DNA of 64,000 nucleotides from positions 10,839-74,838 of the forward strand of contig DATLSD010000006.1 of assembly GCA_035534315.1 (NCBI GenBank), read 5' to 3'. Under the pieces are notes generated by a model. It did not search any database, was not told the origin of the DNA, and saw only the letters and a list, made by a program, of their open reading frames with translations. This stretch comes from Elusimicrobiota bacterium. Lineage in GTDB: Bacteria > Elusimicrobiota > Elusimicrobia > UBA1565 > UBA9628. Both the position numbers and the translations under genes were made by a program. Numbering within the stretch: the stretch's first letter is position 1; each line of letters starts with the position of its first letter. Shown here in pieces: positions 4,227-49,092 of this stretch.

Positions 4227-7200
4227 TCAAGCGAACGCCTCGACTTCCGGCAGATCGTCAAGCAGGAACCGCGCGGCCGCGTAGCCGACGCCCGCCTGGC
4301 CCTGGAAAAAGCCGGGATTGGGCGGCCCCCCGTCAAAACCCAGGCGCAGCGCCCCGCGCCGGGCCCGGGAAACAACGCGCGCAATTTTATGCCGTGCTTG
4401 CCGCGTCAAAGCCTCGTCGCTCAGCGCCCGCGCGGCGCGCGCGAGGAAGAGAGCGGCTCCCGCCTCGCCGCAGCAGAGATGATCCACGGCAGGTTCGTCC
4501 GCGTAGCGCTCCACGGCCGCGGCGGCCCAGCGCGCGGCCCGCGAAAAATCGAGCCCCAAAATCCGGCCCGTTTCCAGCAAGCCGAGGCCGACGCCCGCCG
4601 CGCCGCCGCACCAGCTCAAGACAAAGCGCGGCTTGTCCCCCTGCCCGAAATCGCGCCAGTCCGGCCAGTTGCCCGCCTCGGCGTCGTAGCTCGAGGCGCA
4701 GAGCTCGGCCAGATCGCGGGAAATCTCCGCCCAAGGCCCGCCGCGCTTGCTCATCCGCGCGCAGACATAGGCCGCGCCCGCCGCGCCGTGGGCGAAACCC
4801 AACTCCGGCCGTTGCGCCCGGCCCGAGGCGATATCGTTGAACAGGCTCCGGCTCGCGGCGAGAAATTCATTTCCGATCTCTTCACGCCGCCTATCCAACT
4901 CCCCGGCCAAATCGGTCGGCGGGGCGCCGGGCAGCGCGTCGAGCGCCAAAAGCGCGCCGGGAATTCCTCCCAGCAAATCCGTCCGGCGCGCATCCTCCGA
5001 AGACAGATATTTGGGCGAAAGCGCCGCGGCCAACTGGGCCGCTTCCGCGATGAGTGATTCTTCTCCCAGGATTCGTCCGATGGCCGAAAGACCGTAGGAC
5101 AAGGACGCCGCTCCCGTGCCGATGCCCAGGCCCATGCCGCGCGTCAGCCGCTCCATGCCGTAGCGGCGCGAGTCCCGCGCGACCAGGCGCGCCGTGGCCA
5201 ACGCGACGCCGCGGGTCCGGGGATTTTTCCCCAGCTTATGGGCCGCGGCCAGAAAAAGCGCGATGCCCAGCGCGCCGTCGAAAAGCCGGCCGCCGACCGG
5301 GCCGTACTGCCAGTTGCGGGAACGCTCGTCGTAGCACATGGAGAGCCACCACGCCTCATCGCCCGCGGTCGTCAAGGCGCTTTCAAGCAAGTCGTCGGCC
5401 AGATTGAGAACAAAATCCTGCATGACGTCCGGATTAAAATCCTCCGCCGCCCCGGCTTCACCGCCTGGGACAAGCTTCGCCGGCGCCGCTTTCGGCGTGA
5501 AAAAGCTCGCGCGCAAAAACCGGCTCTGCCGGGCCAAGTCCGCCTCGTCAAGAGCGGCCAGGCGCTTGCGGACCAAATCAAGCGGCGCCTCGTTCATCAC
5601 CAGAATCCGCCGCCCGCCGCAAGACGCGTAATCATGGCCTGGCGCGGTTTTAAACACCGGGACATCTCGGCAAGACAGCGCCCGGATTTCCTCGACCGCG
5701 CTCAAGCCCAGGCTTTGCCGCTCCTTCTCGTCTTCCACGCCCGAAAGCGCGCGCCAGAGCGGCTCGAACACGAAGCCTTGGGCCGCGCCATCCTTGAGCG
5801 CGGCGGGCTCCAGCGATTTTTGCAGCATGTGCGCGTAAACGCGGGTGTTGCGCAGGATAAAGCGCGTCGGCAGGTTCTCAAGGGACTCAAGCGCGGCGGA
5901 AACGGCTCGGCGGAACTCCGGGCGAAGAGCCTGGCGGTAGGCCGCGGCGAAGCCCGATTCGATGTCGTCGAGGAAATCAGCCGCGGCGACGGGCCGGCCG
6001 TTTAAAAGCGGCTTGTTGGCGCTCGACTCGATCCTCACTCGGACCTTCGCCACGCGCATGCGGTCACGGTTAGCGAACTCCCATCGCAGAGCCTCCCCAG
6101 ATTCCTCCGCGCTTCCCCCCGCTAAGCCGCTCGACTCCAAAATCCGGCCGCCTCCCAAAAACTCGTAGCGCGGCAGAAGCGCCGTGCGCACCACCGATTC
6201 AAAGAAGAAGCGGTGCTGGGCCAAATTGGCCGCGTCGAAGGCGCCCTCTCCCAGGCGCGGCCGCGGGCAGCAGAGAGTCTCCAAATCAATCGGATAAGGG
6301 CCGGCTGCCGTCGCGACGATGTTTTCGTGGTGCAAATCCGAGGCGCCCAGCAGGTACATATGAAAAAGCAGCTCGCCCCCGGACCTGAAGTATTTCCGCA
6401 CTTGAGCCTCTTCCGTAAAATCAGCCCGGCGGGCGAACGCGCAATAACCGTAGCCGCCGCGGTCGAGCACGCGCAGACGGCCCAAGCCGGAGACAAAGCC
6501 CGCCGCGTCAAGCCTGTCCAAGTAGGCGCAAAACCACGCTTCGGCCGCCAAGGGCTTGGGCTTATAAAGGAAGCGTCCGCCGCCGTCCAATTCCAGCAGG
6601 GCCACGGTCTTGCCGCCCTCGTGCGGATCCGAAACGCCGAATTCAGCGCGCGAGATGCGCCTAAACATGTCACTTGCCGCGAAAATCTTGGCCAGTTCCG
6701 GCCAATCCTCGGCGAGACGGGAGACGAACAGGGCCGCGTTCCTGCGCCAATTTTCGAGCAGGACGGCCATGACGCGAAGGAGCGCCGGATATTCTTCGAA
6801 GAACGCGCGGAAGTCCTCCGCGAGGAATCGATGGACGAACGCGCGGAAAGCCGCGTCAGAGTCGGGATCGAAGCCGGAGAGTTCCGCGCCTTCGAGGCCG
6901 CGGAAGACGGCGAACTCGGCCGCCAGGCAATAAGCCGAAGCCCCGCAAAGGTTCCTGAGCAGATCGCGCCCGATATCTCTCCAAGCTTGCGGCGCCAGCG
7001 GTGCCTCCGGAACAGCCGCAGCGCAAGCGCCCTTGAGGCGTGCGAGCTCGTGCTCGGTTAGCGCCGACCAGACAGGGCCAAAAGGAATGTCCGCGCCGGG
7101 CAGGGCGGCCGCGTCTTGTTCCGCGTCCCTTTGCGGCTTTTCCCGACCGCACGAGAGAAAGTCGATAATGTCGACCGCGGCGGGAACCCAGCTCTCATCC

Positions 7201-44304: not shown

Positions 44305-44943
44305 TTAGGATTTTAACTGGACGCCTTTGATTATTTCCCACAACTGCGGGCCGTCGATCATCCGAATCGGTTTGCCTCGCGCGAAAGCGTGCGCATCCCT
44401 GGTGAATTTTCCTGAAGTCACGACAATCCCCGCGTCGGCCTTCTCCGCCGCCATCACGCCGTAGAGTTCACGAACAACACTAGCCCCTACGGACCAAACT
44501 TTCCAGTGCTTGCATTGGACGAGCGTCTTCTTCCCCTCTTTGCGCAAAACCAAATCGACGCCGCCATCGGCTCCGCCGCTAATCGATTCTTCAGTCGCGT
44601 AGCCCTGCCTCTTGAACGCCTCGCCCACCAGCCACTCAAACTGCTGCCACGTTAAATTTTGGATGGACGCAGGGCCGCTCTGACTATCAACAACTTTTTT
44701 CCTAAACATTCCGAAAATTGCCGCCAACAAAGCCGCCAACAAAAAACCCCCAGCAGCGATAGGAGCAAGCATTCGCGACGAAGCCGCGAATGCTGCGAGA
44801 ATTCCTTGTCGGAAAATAAACGCGGGCAAAACCCATCGCAATCCGATATAAGCGATGGGCGCCAATACCACGGAAAACCACCATGGCATCAAGATCAACT
44901 GCTCGAGCTCGGAAGGATTACGGCGACTCACAACCTTCCTCAA
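44305..44943 (-). CDS. Membrane-anchored Mrr-cat (restriction endonuclease-like) domain protein
   Basis: Two N-terminal TM helices precede the GGVDLVLRK...QCKHW Mrr catalytic motif. Local GC is visibly lower than the surroundings. Confidence 0.5.
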   Translation of the reverse strand: MRKVVSRRNPSELEQLILMPWWFSVVLAPIAYIGLRWVLPAFIFRQGILAAFAASSRMLAPIAAGGFLLAALLAAIFGMFRKKVVDSQSGPASIQNLTWQQFEWLVGEAFKRQGYATEESISGGADGGVDLVLRKEGKKTLVQCKHWKVWSVGASVVRELYGVMAAEKADAGIVVTSGKFTRDAHAFARGKPIRMIDGPQLWEIIKGVQLKS

Positions 44944-46388
44944 TACGTCGGCACGGTGGGGTCGATGCGCTCGGACCAGGCGGTGATGCCGCCGGCCACG
45001 TTGACCGCCTTGGTAAATCCCGCGTCGTGCAGGAACTTGACCGCCTTGGCGGAGCGCCCCCCCATCTTGCAGTGCACCAGGATTTCATCCGCGGAGTTAA
45101 GCTCGCTCACGCGCTCGGGCAGTTGGCCCAACGGAATGAGCTTTGAGCCGGGCAGGCGGCAGATGTCGTACTCCTCCTGCTCGCGCACGTCCAGGATAAA
45201 AATCTCCTCGCCGCGGTCCATCTTGGCCTTTAACTCCTCCACGCTGACCTCGGGGACGCCGGCCGCGGCCGCCTTTTTCTCCTCGCCGCGAATACCGCAA
45301 AACTCCTCGTAGTCGATGAGCGTCTTGATGCTGGGCTTGGTCCCGCAGACCGGGCAACCGGGGTCCTTGCGGAGAGCCAACTTTCTCCAGTTCATCTTCA
45401 AGGCATCAAAGAGCACGAGCTTGCCGATCAAGGGCTCGCCGATGCCCACGATGAGCTTGATGGTCTCGGTCGCCTGCAGCGCGCCCACCACGCCCGGCAA
45501 AACGCCCAGCACGCCGCCCTCGGCGCAGGACGGCACCAGGCCCGGCGGCGGCGGCTCCGCGTAGACGCAGCGGTAGCACGGCCCGCGCTCGGCCCAGAAC
45601 ACCGAGACCTGGCCCTCGAAGCGGAAGATGCTGCCGTAGACGTTGGGCTTGCCCAAGAGCGCGCAGGCGTCGTTGACCAGGTAGCGCGTGGCGAAGTTGT
45701 CCGTGCCGTCGACCACGATGTCGTAGCCCTTGATGATGTCCAAGGCGTTTTGCGAGGTGAGCCTGGTCTCGTGGGTTTGGATTTTGATAGCCGGGTTGAC
45801 GCCCAAGAGCCGCGCGCGCGCCGATTCGATTTTGGGCTTGCCCACCGCGTCGGTGGAATGGATGATTTGGCGCTGCAAGTTGGAAAGCTCGACCACGTCG
45901 AAGTCCACGATGCCGATCGTGCCCACGCCGGCCGCGGCCAAATACAGGCTCAGCGGCGAGCCAAGCCCGCCCGCGCCGATGGTCAGCACCTTGGCTTCTT
46001 TAAGTTTTTTCTGCCCCGCCATGCCCACCTCGGGCATGATGAGGTGCCGGCTGTAGCGCTTGATTTCCTCGGCGCTAAACGTGGTCTCCTCTTGGGCCGC
46101 AGCCCGGGCCGCGTTGCCGCCCGCAATTGAGGGCACGATGAGCAGCACGTCGCCGTCCTTGACCGGGGTCTTGGCGCCCTGCAAATGCCGGATGTCCGCG
46201 TCGTTGAGGAACACGTTGACGAAATGGCGCAGCTGGCCGTCGTCGCCGACCAAATGTTTTTTGAGCGCGGCGTATTTGCCCGTCAAAGCGTCCAACACCG
46301 CCCCCACGGTCGCGCCTTCGAGCTCGACCACTTCTTTTTTCTCGACGTACTGCCGCAGCGCCGTCGGCACGTGAACTTGAACTTTCAT
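44940..46388 (-). CDS. moeZ: CysO(MoaD/ThiS-like, ends GG)-MoeZ fusion: sulfur-carrier protein joined in-frame to E1-like adenylyltransferase with C-terminal rhodanese
   Basis: MKVQ...SIAGG (91 aa) continues without a stop into EEIKRYSRHLIMPEVG...GAGGLGSP...CxxC...HCKMGGRSAKA. The MoeZ part is near-identical in pattern to mycobacterial MoeZ. Start ATG overlaps the mec stop (TGATG). Confidence 0.85.
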   Translation of the reverse strand: MKVQVHVPTALRQYVEKKEVVELEGATVGAVLDALTGKYAALKKHLVGDDGQLRHFVNVFLNDADIRHLQGAKTPVKDGDVLLIVPSIAGGNAARAAAQEETTFSAEEIKRYSRHLIMPEVGMAGQKKLKEAKVLTIGAGGLGSPLSLYLAAAGVGTIGIVDFDVVELSNLQRQIIHSTDAVGKPKIESARARLLGVNPAIKIQTHETRLTSQNALDIIKGYDIVVDGTDNFATRYLVNDACALLGKPNVYGSIFRFEGQVSVFWAERGPCYRCVYAEPPPPGLVPSCAEGGVLGVLPGVVGALQATETIKLIVGIGEPLIGKLVLFDALKMNWRKLALRKDPGCPVCGTKPSIKTLIDYEEFCGIRGEEKKAAAAGVPEVSVEELKAKMDRGEEIFILDVREQEEYDICRLPGSKLIPLGQLPERVSELNSADEILVHCKMGGRSAKAVKFLHDAGFTKAVNVAGGITAWSERIDPTVPTY

Positions 46389-46804
46389 CAAAGAACCTCC
46401 GTTTTTCCCTCGATAAAGCTGCGCCCGTCCTCGGACCGCCGCCACACCCGCGCGTCCCCGGCGCCCGCCTCCGTGGTCGCGACGATCAAATAAGCGTAGG
46501 CGGGCCAGGCGCGCTGCAGGTCAAAGGGCGAGGGCCACGCCGGGGCGTTGGGGTGCGAGTGGTAAATGCCCACGATGCCCTGGGGCTTTCCCGAAAATTC
46601 CTTCTCGACGGCCGCCCAGGCCTGCGGATCCATCTCGTAGCGGTCGTTCTTTCTTTGCGGGTTGGCCATGTTTTTGAGCGGCCTAAAATCCGAGGCGCGC
46701 ACGTCCGAGTCCGGCTCGCCGAAGTCGGCCGGAATGTCGCCGATTAAAAGCCCGCAGCCTTCCTCGGGATAGGCCCGGCGCACGTGATCCTGGATGCCCT
46801 GCAT
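46388..46804 (-). CDS. mec: JAMM/MPN+ metalloprotease Mec+ (CysO-cysteine peptidase)
   Basis: 138 aa with EEGCGLL and the HSHP JAMM motif. The true gene lies within a larger spurious track ORF (46388..47644). Confidence 0.8.
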   Translation of the reverse strand: MQGIQDHVRRAYPEEGCGLLIGDIPADFGEPDSDVRASDFRPLKNMANPQRKNDRYEMDPQAWAAVEKEFSGKPQGIVGIYHSHPNAPAWPSPFDLQRAWPAYAYLIVATTEAGAGDARVWRRSEDGRSFIEGKTEVL

Positions 46805-46827
46805 GACTTCGCGCGCGATCAGGAGCG

Positions 46828-47766
46828 TCACCGCGCCGCCTCCCAGAAGCGCTCGCTCAAGTAGCGCTCGCCGCCGTCCGGCAGAACCGTGACCAAGAGC
46901 GCGTCCTGCCCCGCCTGGGAAAGCTTTTGTCCGACCTTGAAGCACGCGGCCAAATTCGCCCCGCCTGAAATGCCGATGAGCACGCCCTCGTCCTTGGCCG
47001 CGCGCAAGACCCAGTCGTAGGCCTCTTCCGTCGCGATTTCCAAATTTTGGTCCGCCTGGCGCGGGTCGTAGATGCCGGGGACGATGGCGCTCTCCATGTG
47101 CTTCAAGCCTTCCAAGCCGTGCAGCGGCGAATCGGGCTGGACGGAAATAAGCGTCACGCCGGGGTTGAGCTCCTTGAGCCTGGCTCCCGCGCCGCGAAAC
47201 GTGCCGCTGGTGCCCAGGCCCGCGACAAAATGCGTGACCCGGCCTTGGGTCTGCTCCCAGATTTCCGGGCCGGTGGTCTCGTAGTGCGCCTTCCAATTCT
47301 CCGGATTGTTGTACTGGTCGGGGTAAAAATAAAGTTTTGGGTTTTCCGCGTTGAGCGCGCGCGCCTTGCGAATCGCGCCGTCGGGGCCTTCCAGGGGATC
47401 GGTGAGGATCAACTCCGCGCCGTAGGCCAGAAGAATTTTCTTTCGCTCCGCGTTGATGTTGGCGGGCACGGCCAGGCGCACCTGGTAGCCCAGCTTCGCG
47501 CCCATCCAGGCGTAGGCGATGCCCGTGTTGCCCGAGGTGGCGTCCATGATGATTTTGCCGGGCGCCAAGCGCCCGTCGCGCTGGGCCTCCCGCAGCATGC
47601 GCAGGGCCGGACGGTCCTTCACCGAGCCGCCGGGGTTGCGCCATTCCGCCTTGGCGGCGATTTGCACGCGGCCACCCAAAGAACGCGCGAGCTTGGGGAA
47701 ATAAATGAGCGGGGTGTTCCCCACCCCCAAGTCTTGCTCTTCCGTCGGATGCGTCGGCGCGCGCAT
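46828..47766 (-). CDS. cysM: Cysteine synthase B-type (CysM, CysO-thiocarboxylate/O-phosphoserine dependent)
   Basis: PLP-fold with SVKDR and TSGNTG motifs; linked to mec and cysO-moeZ. Confidence 0.85.
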   Translation of the reverse strand: MRAPTHPTEEQDLGVGNTPLIYFPKLARSLGGRVQIAAKAEWRNPGGSVKDRPALRMLREAQRDGRLAPGKIIMDATSGNTGIAYAWMGAKLGYQVRLAVPANINAERKKILLAYGAELILTDPLEGPDGAIRKARALNAENPKLYFYPDQYNNPENWKAHYETTGPEIWEQTQGRVTHFVAGLGTSGTFRGAGARLKELNPGVTLISVQPDSPLHGLEGLKHMESAIVPGIYDPRQADQNLEIATEEAYDWVLRAAKDEGVLIGISGGANLAACFKVGQKLSQAGQDALLVTVLPDGGERYLSERFWEAAR

Positions 47767-47796: not shown

Positions 47797-49092
47797 TTAG
47801 AAGGCTAATTGCGCGCGCGTGCCCAGGACGCGCTCGATGGGGCGATTGCCCGCGCCGCCGCCGCCCTCGAACCAGGTCTGCTCGTAATCCGCGGCTAGCC
47901 GCACGAAATCGTTGAGATACCAGTTGAGCGCGAGCGTATAGGCGGTCGCGCGCGACGCCGAAACGGTCGGATCGGCGAAAACCGGGAAAGTCCTGGGATC
48001 AATCCAGAGCTGATGAAACCGCGCCGCCAGCTCCCACGCGCCCCACGTTCCCGCCTCGGGATCGAACGGCCTATTCGGGGAGACCCCTTTGTAGGAGGCA
48101 GTCCCGCCCGCCACCACCCAGAACGCCGCGGCCTGCCAGGCGCGATTGGTCAGGCGGGCCCGCGCGCCGCCGGCCAGAGCCGTCTGGCTGGTTTGCGCGT
48201 ACTCCGCGTACGCCCCCAGCGGCCCCAAGTAATAGGAAGCTTGCGGGATTAAATGGCTTTGCTCGCCGTCGAAGGCCACGTTGCTCCGGTAGCTCATGAA
48301 TTGATCTTGGCCTGTCGCGGTCCTAAAAACGGGGATGCCGGGGTTCGAGCCGGCATAGCTGCCCGCGACGCCGACGCCCAGGTTCTCCAGCGCGCGGCGG
48401 CCGAAATTCTTGAACGGCTGGACGAAGACCCGCGCGGCCAATTCCTTAGCGTTGGTGGCGGGGCCGTCGGGCGCGTGGGCGGCGTCGGCCGTGCCGTTGG
48501 TGAGGGAGGTTTGGTACTTAATCGCGCCGCCAAAGACGCCGCCGCGAAATTCTACTCCGGTGTCGCGCGACGGCATCAGGTCCGCCGTCAGGCCCCGTTC
48601 CATGAAGGTCAGGTCGCGGGCGGCGCGCAGCCGCTCCAGGCCCAAAGGCGGCTTGAACTTCCCGATTCTCAAGTTCGCGAAAGACCACGGCCGGACGTCA
48701 AAGTACGCGTCGTCAATCACCGCGGTATTTTCGCCGAAGTCCGGCTGAAACTTGAAATCATAAAACCCGAACATCGTGCCCTTGAGTTCGGGGCGCGCGC
48801 GCCTGAGCCAAAATCCGCTCGCCGCGGGATTAGCTCCGCTTCCCAGATAGAACCGGCCGTCGGTTTGGATGAGGCCCTTGAACTGGAGCTTTAAATCCCC
48901 GCCGGTGGGCTTGCGCGGCGCGGCTCCCAAATCGCGCTGCAGGGATTCCACCTGCGACTCAAGCCTATCCACCCGCTGCGCCAAAGTGTCCGTGGAGGCA
49001 AAAACCGCCGAGGGCGGCGCCTCTTGCGCGCGAAGCGGCCGGCCTATCGCGCAAAGCGCCAGCGCCGCCGCGATTGAAGCATGCTTGTTCAT
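47797..49092 (-). CDS. Outer-membrane porin, phosphate-selective porin O/P-like
   Basis: Signal peptide, N-terminal coiled-coil (LESQVESLQRDL), beta-barrel composition and a C-terminal Phe. Confidence 0.5.
   Translation of the reverse strand: MNKHASIAAALALCAIGRPLRAQEAPPSAVFASTDTLAQRVDRLESQVESLQRDLGAAPRKPTGGDLKLQFKGLIQTDGRFYLGSGANPAASGFWLRRARPELKGTMFGFYDFKFQPDFGENTAVIDDAYFDVRPWSFANLRIGKFKPPLGLERLRAARDLTFMERGLTADLMPSRDTGVEFRGGVFGGAIKYQTSLTNGTADAAHAPDGPATNAKELAARVFVQPFKNFGRRALENLGVGVAGSYAGSNPGIPVFRTATGQDQFMSYRSNVAFDGEQSHLIPQASYYLGPLGAYAEYAQTSQTALAGGARARLTNRAWQAAAFWVVAGGTASYKGVSPNRPFDPEAGTWGAWELAARFHQLWIDPRTFPVFADPTVSASRATAYTLALNWYLNDFVRLAADYEQTWFEGGGGAGNRPIERVLGTRAQLAF

Follow-up and report, generated by a model that had tools for sequence, protein, structure and literature searches.

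Gene organization of the operon and domains of the fusion protein

The stretch of DNA analyzed here (64,000 nt of contig DATLSD010000006.1 from the Elusimicrobiota metagenome-assembled genome (MAG) GCA_035534315.1; hereafter the window) contains an operon of three minus-strand genes, of which consecutive pairs overlap at their stop and start codons, as read from the sequence. In 5' to 3' order, the genes encode a CysM-like pyridoxal 5'-phosphate (PLP) enzyme, a JAMM metallopeptidase, and a fusion protein that joins a CysO-like ubiquitin-like protein (Ubl) to an E1-type activating enzyme and a rhodanese domain (Table 1). Both the cysM-JAMM-fusion cluster and the TGATG overlap of the JAMM stop codon with the fusion start codon were found where a preliminary description of this DNA had placed them; the GTGA overlap between the cysM-like and JAMM genes was not part of that description.

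Pfam analysis of the 482-aa open reading frame (ORF) identified ThiS (residues 5-91, 52 bits), ThiF (112-347, 284 bits) and Rhodanese (382-473, 70 bits) domains, all three of which exceed the gathering thresholds and lie in the order ThiS, ThiF, Rhodanese in one polypeptide. The junction between the carrier and the E1 reads ...IVPSIAGG(90-91)-NAARAAAQEETTF-SAEEIKRYSRHL... in a single frame with no stop and no frame change, and 391 residues follow G91. The in-frame CysO-E1-rhodanese fusion with an internal Gly-Gly (GG) that had been proposed was thus confirmed, as was the integrity of the reading frame across the linker region. A linker of about 17 residues that aligns with the MoeZ N-terminus had also been proposed, which is approximately correct: the 12 residues 92-103 are variable, and the conserved E1 N-terminal sequence comes next.

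The carrier domain passed the NCBIfam SAMP1 model (63.6 bits, cut-off 60), and G91 pairs with the final residue of the solved CysO proteins 3dwg_C (chain 1-93 of 93) and 4n6e_B (1-90 of 90). Residues A89, G90 and G91 are invariant in 76/76 fused homologues, and the stretch that follows them contains no conserved residue. The position directly after GG is occupied by S, A, T, N, V, R, M or K, and the GG-to-RYxRH spacing ranges between 13 and 36 residues (median 18, 75 homologues). An AlphaFold model built from the 76-sequence alignment (predicted local distance difference test (pLDDT) 88, predicted template modelling score 0.78) had pLDDT values below 50 at residues 89-100, which comprise GG and linker residues, and the linker after GG is predicted to be disordered.

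Two routes by which separate products might arise from this ORF without a peptidase were considered and rejected. The first in-frame ATG, GTG or TTG codon after GG, at which an internal start could yield a separate E1, is that of M118, past the invariant RYSRH motif (R111, R114), and a free GG end would still not arise. A programmed frameshift ending the carrier at GG is not supported either, since the stop in the -1 frame comes only 15 codons on and no stop lies close by in the +1 frame.

Unfused E1-rhodanese relatives begin to match the query at residue ~100-110, so that the E1 part of the fusion starts where free-standing E1 enzymes start. Its relatives in the PDB include Uba4 (6yub) and MoeB (1jw9). 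Residues invariant in the homologues are R111, R114 and H115 of the RYSRH motif, the GxGxxG ATP loop (138-143), the zinc cysteines C271, C274, C345 and C348, C288, and C440 of the rhodanese domain. The E1 scored 538.5 with the NCBIfam MoeZ equivalog NF005902, below the cut-off of 647, and 486.6 with the MoeB model NF006444, above the cut-off of 449.

The JAMM peptidase has a complete JAMM motif, E24...H-S-H-x7-S-x2-D (HSHPNAPAWPSPFD). Its best solved relative is an MPN protein of Salinibacter ruber (2kcq_A, 2e-17), and its sole NCBIfam match is the desampylase model, with a score under the cut-off of that model. The best NCBIfam match of the PLP enzyme was the cysM model TIGR01138 (339 bits, below the cut-off of 394), and it also scored under the CysK cut-off. 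Its matches in the PDB were O-acetylserine sulfhydrylase (OASS)/CysM enzymes, the best of which were all cysteine synthases (1e-67 to 1e-54); CysM of Mycobacterium tuberculosis (3dwg_A, 1e-54) was not the closest solved relative and was no nearer than plant or E. coli enzymes. The PLP enzyme belongs to the cysteine-synthase family, and its use of O-phosphoserine is putative. The view that the cluster reproduces the mycobacterial pathway, as the preliminary description put it, holds only at the level of protein families; the scores of the E1 (538 vs 647) and of the PLP enzyme (339 vs 394) are under the equivalog cut-offs, and M. tuberculosis CysM is not the closest solved relative.

Table 1. 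Positions of the operon genes, their overlaps and the domains of the fusion protein in the window.
Feature	Position	Strand	Basis
Cysteine-synthase-family PLP enzyme (CysM/CysK-like), 312 aa	46828..47766	-	Pfam PALP 224 bits
GTGA overlap of JAMM GTG start and cysM TGA stop	46828..46831	-	read from sequence
JAMM/MPN+ metallopeptidase (Mec+-like), 147 aa, GTG start	46388..46831	-	Pfam Prok-JAB 75 bits
GGAGG Shine-Dalgarno sequence, 7 nt 5' of the fusion ATG, within the JAMM 3' end	46396..46400	-	sequence
TGATG overlap, one base common to JAMM TGA stop and fusion ATG	46386..46390	-	read from sequence
Fusion ORF, 482 aa, 51.8 kDa: CysO-like Ubl, linker, E1, rhodanese	44940..46388	-	ATG at 46388, stop at 44940-44942
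CysO/ThiS/MoaD-type beta-grasp sulfur-carrier domain, residues 1-91, 9,783 Da if released	46116..46388	-	Pfam ThiS
Gly90-Gly91 codons GGCGGC; predicted cleavage after Gly91	46116..46121	-	conservation in homologues
Variable linker, residues 92-103 (NAARAAAQEETT)	46080..46115	-	unconserved
MoeB/MoeZ/Uba4-type E1 adenylation domain, residues 104-365	45294..46079	-	Pfam ThiF 284 bits
Rhodanese domain, residues 382-473, active-site Cys440 (HCKMGGRS)	44970..45245	-	Pfam Rhodanese 70 bits

Distribution of the fusion and its linkage to JAMM genes

A protein identical to the window fusion protein is present in NCBI (P0001, from an Elusimicrobiota MAG), and 118 of the 120 best database matches have a recorded ThiS, ThiF and Rhodanese architecture. 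At least 118 clusters share 62-70% identity with the query, cover it end-to-end and carry the same three Pfam domains; their sources include Elusimicrobia, Acidobacteria, Marinimicrobia and unnamed metagenomes. A scan of one genome per species gave 80 loci picked by similarity to the fused query. The carrier and the E1 formed one ORF in 55 of these species-level loci and were encoded by separate genes in 25. The survey of relatives thus found the fusion to be recurrent, with the fused loci coming from Acidobacteriota, Gemmatimonadota, Elusimicrobiota, Bacteroidota, Eisenbacteria, Verrucomicrobiota, Armatimonadota and other phyla. Paraburkholderia, Bordetella and Pseudomonas chlororaphis also have 470-aa fusions with the carrier-E1-rhodanese order. 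The fusion is genuine and is subject to selection.

When the library was clustered at 50% identity, ~15 of the best 150 representatives had an N-terminal carrier domain and the remaining ones were ordinary E1-rhodanese proteins of ~375-395 aa, and the fusion is therefore a minority architecture across several clusters. In a neighbor-joining tree of the E1 parts, unfused forms appeared in a large clade of Terriglobia and also, scattered, at four or more other positions, which indicates that fusion or fission has recurred. The cysM-JAMM-fusion operon was also observed in MAGs labelled as archaea (L030, L068 and L077, Thermoplasmata; L051, Nitrososphaerales), which could reflect lateral transfer or mis-binning.

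In 68 of the 80 loci, a profile search placed a JAMM gene directly upstream of the carrier. Among the 54 fused loci with enough upstream sequence to be assessed, 52, from at least eight phyla, had a JAMM gene directly upstream, and 48 had a cysteine synthase gene as well. Across phyla, 64 of the 78 loci that could be assessed had a cysteine-synthase homologue upstream of the JAMM gene. In the JAMM-linked loci, the JAMM stop overlapped the carrier start in 16/68 and lay no more than 30 nt from it in 35/68.

All 80 carriers contained GG. The 25 unfused relatives formed a graded series in which the carrier ended 0-27 residues beyond GG, the range being 1-27 residues for those linked to a JAMM gene, and every unfused carrier with three or more residues after GG had an adjacent JAMM gene (13/13). 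None of the 68 JAMM-linked loci encoded a carrier ending exactly at GG, and the two carriers that did so had no JAMM nearby. The association between JAMM and a post-GG extension gave p = 3e-7 in a 2x2 Fisher test that ignores kinship among the loci.

The post-GG tails of unfused JAMM-linked carriers were rich in cysteine (22/133 residues, ~17%) and often ended in C-x-R. Examples are GG-CCPCGCCCCPR, GG-CARRCICR, GG-RPLRCACS, GG-SAFACGAGRDLCCN and ...VGCCPPACGR, and such tails were seen in L016, L079, L032, L064, L053, L041, L063 and L018, just downstream of position ~6270 of each locus. They could be metal- or redox-active pro-peptides, or out-of-frame remnants of a GC-rich former linker. At another locus (L028, 57-1457, from an Acidobacteria MAG), the cysteine synthase and the JAMM shared one frame that no stop interrupts, which could be either a CysM-JAMM fusion or an assembly error.

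In Pseudomonas, the JAMM itself was found joined to the carrier. A 619-aa protein (P0165) contains Prok-JAB, a carrier ending in SGG, ThiF and Rhodanese in a single chain, and is conserved at 87-100% identity across many cultured Pseudomonas, including complete P. yamanorum genomes. The syntenic operon encodes EamA, JAB, carrier-E1-rhodanese, PALP, hexapeptide transferase and AlaX-like (tRNA_SAD) proteins, with the JAB as a separate gene in P. chlororaphis (L083 4531-6419) and fused in P. yamanorum (L082 5001-6860). The attachment of the JAMM to the carrier-E1 protein is classic fusion (Rosetta-stone) evidence, pointing to a JAMM that would work on or with the carrier-E1 protein, and the product of this Pseudomonas operon may not be plain cysteine. 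Permuted or alternative architectures were also observed in the E1 family, namely JAB-ThiS-Rhodanese-ThiF, ThiS-Rhodanese-ThiF, Rhodanese-ThiF and thiamine-phosphate synthase (TMP-TENI)-ThiF-Rhodanese (P0141, P0126, P0155, P0177 and P0270).

In the window, a scan of 43.3-50.8 kb for promoters and terminators was uninformative and gave no convincing terminator between the three operon genes. Downstream of the fusion gene is an Mrr_cat restriction-endonuclease-like ORF (44305-44943, minus strand, Pfam 114 bits) with a hydrophobic N-terminal region, whose TTG start shares bases with the stop codon of the fusion gene (TTGA at 44940-44943); a downstream ATG (MPWWF...) may be its true start, and it has no obvious functional tie to the sulfur operon. 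On the other side, a gene of the phosphate-selective porin O/P family (47797-49092, minus strand) ends 30 nt upstream of the cysM start, and the two genes, being on the same strand, may be co-transcribed.

Proposed maturation of the carrier and alternative explanations

The operon is best explained as one for protein-thiocarboxylate-dependent cysteine synthesis, of the kind established in M. tuberculosis. Comparison of the related sequences suggests that the JAMM probably releases CysO-GG from the precursor, a cleavage step that we infer, and also recycles the carrier from CysO-Cys. Under this proposal, the cell would produce the carrier as the N-terminal part of a precursor of 482 aa, in which its own activating enzyme is also contained. 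Formation of an acyl-adenylate by an E1 requires a free C-terminal carboxylate on the carrier. Because adenylation requires the free Gly-Gly carboxylate, the precursor must be cut after Gly91. The co-translated JAMM would recognize the beta-grasp domain and hydrolyze the Gly91-Asn92 bond in the disordered linker, giving CysO-GG of ~9.8 kDa and an E1-rhodanese protein of ~42 kDa. The E1 would adenylate the released CysO, the persulfide of rhodanese Cys440 would turn adenylated CysO into CysO-COSH, and the PLP enzyme would add CysO-COSH to the aminoacrylate from O-phospho- or O-acetylserine. After an S-to-N acyl shift, the JAMM would hydrolyze CysO-Cys to cysteine and CysO-GG again. The present analysis shows the anatomy of the locus, its conservation and the linkage of the genes; the chemical steps, from adenylation through sulfur transfer and addition to the hydrolysis of CysO-Cys, are established in other systems.

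The JAMM would thus have two jobs and one specificity, cutting after the GG of the carrier. Because the pathway peptidase would already cut there in every turnover, residues added after GG would cost little, and such cheap additions would explain the observed range, from short tails to the E1 fusion and the JAMM-carrier-E1 polyprotein of Pseudomonas. The preliminary description had argued that a peptidase would be needed to free the GG end, and this argument gains comparative support from the invariant AGG, the JAMM linkage in 52/54 fused loci, the graded extensions and the Pseudomonas polyproteins.

Several points weigh against this proposal. Cleavage of a Ubl-E1 fusion by a JAMM is a step that we infer, and the same applies to the substrate of the PLP enzyme; both the PLP enzyme and the E1 fall below the CysM and MoeZ equivalog cut-offs, and the end product could be other than cysteine. 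The association between JAMM and post-GG extension is confounded, as the eight loci without a JAMM are also without cysM, and the JAMM may occur solely as a CysO-Cys hydrolase. On the E1 tree the loci are phylogenetically clustered, and the 80-locus sample is biased towards fusions, the query itself being fused. The closest E1 relative known (P0002, 394 aa, 90% identity, from another Elusimicrobia MAG) is unfused; a truncated gene call was ruled out in this case by stops in all three frames within 24 nt 5' of its ATG (L081 1-1209), and its unfused state implies a recent gain or loss of the carrier domain. Finally, two fused loci, L067 and L070, had no JAMM within 6 kb of the fusion; ORF calls in the neighborhood of L067 were dominated by GC-rich spurious frames. 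Beside the L070 fusion, a divergent class-V aminotransferase/cysteine-desulfurase-like gene was observed (4580-5887, minus strand), whose product could plausibly supply sulfur to the rhodanese domain.

One alternative is that the fused beta-grasp domain is never released and acts as a cis regulatory or docking module on the E1, the true carrier being a standalone protein encoded elsewhere. Iyer et al. (2006) described ThiF with a fused N-terminal Ub-like domain that co-occurs with a separate ThiS, and suggested a different role for it; the two fused loci without an adjacent JAMM would also fit, and the visible part of the genome is 64 kb. However, an invariant AGG followed by freely varying residues is the pattern of a future C-terminus and not of a docking module, the domain matches bona fide CysO structures end-to-end, and a standalone carrier occupies the equivalent operon position in 25 relatives. 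A hidden Markov model (HMM) search found a single ThiS-like ORF in the 64-kb window and just one in each of the 80 loci, and thiamine genes are absent nearby, the neighbors being the cysteine synthase and the JAMM. Permanent retention of the domain therefore appears very unlikely. It is also quite unlikely that the precursor is cut after GG by a housekeeping protease or by autocatalysis while the JAMM only hydrolyzes the CysO-cysteine adduct. Four fused loci (L017, L046, L060 and L065) keep the JAMM though cysM is absent within 6 kb, Pseudomonas has the JAMM and the Ubl-E1 protein in a single chain, the characterized prokaryotic cases of post-GG trimming and linear Ubl-fusion cleavage all use JAMM/JAB enzymes, and no conserved Cys, Ser or Thr follows GG for intein-like autoprocessing. 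What such a division of labor has in its favor is that the Mec+ role already accounts for the JAMM, which co-occurs with cysM, that no JAMM lies next to the fusion in L067 and L070, and that six unfused carriers with 1-2 post-GG residues have no JAMM nearby, so that another trimming activity must exist. An HMM search found no second JAMM in the 64-kb window.

An assembly or sequencing artefact, in which a lost stop or a frameshift joined cysO and moeZ, has next to no chance of accounting for the fusion: although the window comes from a MAG, and the genes are separate in 25/80 relatives and in the 90%-identical E1, the uninterrupted architecture occurs in more than 115 independent clusters and 55 species-level genomes as well as in complete Pseudomonas and Paraburkholderia genomes, and the linker is clean in one frame. 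Whether the product is cysteine for primary metabolism can be questioned on other grounds. The PLP enzyme does not reach the curated cut-offs for CysM and CysK, the carrier scores above that of the SAMP1 model, the one NCBIfam match of the JAMM is a sub-cut-off desampylase, the Pseudomonas operon includes EamA, hexapeptide-transferase and AlaX-like genes, and such carriers have been recruited for natural products (PMC5925218); the system could then make another thiol metabolite, or conjugate proteins in a manner similar to archaeal sampylation with the JAMM as deconjugase. We regard this as unlikely, considering that the best matches of the PLP enzyme are all cysteine synthases, that the cysteine-synthase linkage extends across phyla (64/78 loci), and that E2-like, adenylate-ligase and biosynthetic tailoring genes are absent from the flanks of the window operon.

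A different view of the same cut is that the blocked C-terminus is itself selected for, the carrier always being an inactive pro-form (with a tail, an E1, or a JAMM plus E1) and the JAMM cut a controlled licensing step. The cut could switch on the carrier and the tethered E1 in response to, for example, zinc, redox state or sulfur status, and the pro-form could also guard against adenylation at too early a stage or stray conjugation to proteins. The lack of an exact-GG carrier in the 68 JAMM-linked loci and the ~17% Cys in the unfused tails are consistent with licensing, and tails of this composition would suit a redox- or metal-sensitive pro-peptide. Selection for a blocked carrier is, in our estimate, unlikely.

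Relation to known systems and implications

In M. tuberculosis, CysO-COSH and O-phosphoserine form CysO-Cys, from which cysteine and CysO are produced, the last hydrolysis being carried out by Mec+ (PMC3227635). The four protein families of that system (CysO, MoeZ(R), CysM and Mec+) are common to M. tuberculosis and the window, and the window carrier domain aligns end-to-end with 3dwg_C. However, mycobacterial CysO is a free protein of 93 aa with GG as its end, and moeZ has no linkage to the mec-cysO-cysM cluster. In the window, by contrast, the carrier forms the N-terminal part of the E1 protein with an internal GG, the gene order is cysM-JAMM-fusion, and neither the E1 nor the PLP enzyme reaches its equivalog cut-off (MoeZ and CysM, respectively).

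Carriers with residues after GG are known from natural product pathways, in which the JAMM is held to trim the carrier: QbsD/QbsE of thioquinolobactin (GG-CF) and CxnF/CxnE of chuangxinmycin (GG plus 10 aa) (PMC5925218). These clusters resemble the window in having post-GG residues and a JAMM that would act before adenylation by a MoeZ-type E1, but the extensions are 2 or 10 residues long and belong to secondary metabolism, whereas in the window a whole E1 of 391 aa follows GG in a cysteine-synthase operon. Linear fusions are cleaved by DRJAMM of Deinococcus and HvJAMM1 of Haloferax, which act on MoaD-MoaE and SAMP1 fusions (PMC8832034), and MoaX is a mycobacterial precedent of the MoaD-MoaE fusion (PMC3227635). 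MoaD-MoaE is likewise a linear carrier-partner fusion that is active only after a cut behind the carrier's C-terminal Gly, which a JAMM was shown to make. However, its partner MoaE uses the thiocarboxylate, in the molybdopterin pathway, whereas the partner in the window is the E1 that makes it, and the JAMM is not encoded in an overlapping operon beside the MoaD-MoaE fusion gene. In the Bil (BilABCD) system, BilC cleaves a BilA-GFP fusion, and one extra C-terminal Ala sterically blocks ATP binding in the E1 (PMC10557695). There, too, a JAB-family peptidase pre-processes its cognate Ubl and exposes the terminal Gly; the Bil system differs in being an antiviral protein-conjugation system with an E2, without a rhodanese or PLP enzyme, and with a Ubl that is not fused to the E1. 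The window also differs from the Campylobacter-type ThiF, which has an uncleaved Ub-like domain, in having no separate standalone ThiS and no thi genes.

The gene set itself was described by Iyer, Burroughs and Aravind (2006) as operon type 4c (ThiS/MoaD, E1-rhodanese, JAB and cysteine synthase), and the JAB was suggested to free fused ThiS/MoaD. The operon in the window and its relatives agree with type 4c in gene set and in several of the phyla (Acidobacteria, Bacteroidetes/Salinibacter, Pseudomonas); the best solved relative of the window JAMM, 2kcq, comes from Salinibacter ruber, a species in the list of Iyer et al. Ubl-E1 fusions in Thaumarchaeota, 'shared with bacteria', were noted by Makarova and Koonin (2010), whose archaeal example is a Ubl-E1-TBP protein in which the rhodanese is absent. 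The texts of both papers contain neither a carrier-E1-rhodanese fusion in a cysteine-synthase operon, nor its prevalence, nor the extension series. Our full-text searches, with Burroughs et al. (2009) outside their scope, found no literature describing or testing a CysO-E1-rhodanese fusion, and no published cleavage of a carrier-E1 fusion was found in the literature searched. The fusion is neither rare nor conceptually new, being a widespread, database-annotated architecture, and the gain is incremental because the components and the idea were already published (2006-2010). Specialists might take an interest in the graded extensions, the Cys-rich tails, the polyprotein of Pseudomonas and the absence of an exact-GG carrier from JAMM-linked loci.

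For genome annotation, the current names 'MoeB' or 'SAMP1' mask a thiocarboxylate-dependent cysteine route, and the carrier gene seems to be missing in such genomes because it lies inside the E1 gene. Since cultured Pseudomonas, Paraburkholderia and Bordetella carry the fusion, the cleavage hypothesis is directly testable. If the JAMM cuts the fusion, this small operon would encode a Ubl precursor together with its E1 and a JAMM for maturation as well as recycling of the carrier, and the logic of eukaryotic ubiquitin precursors and deubiquitinases would be found in a metabolic setting in many little-studied phyla.

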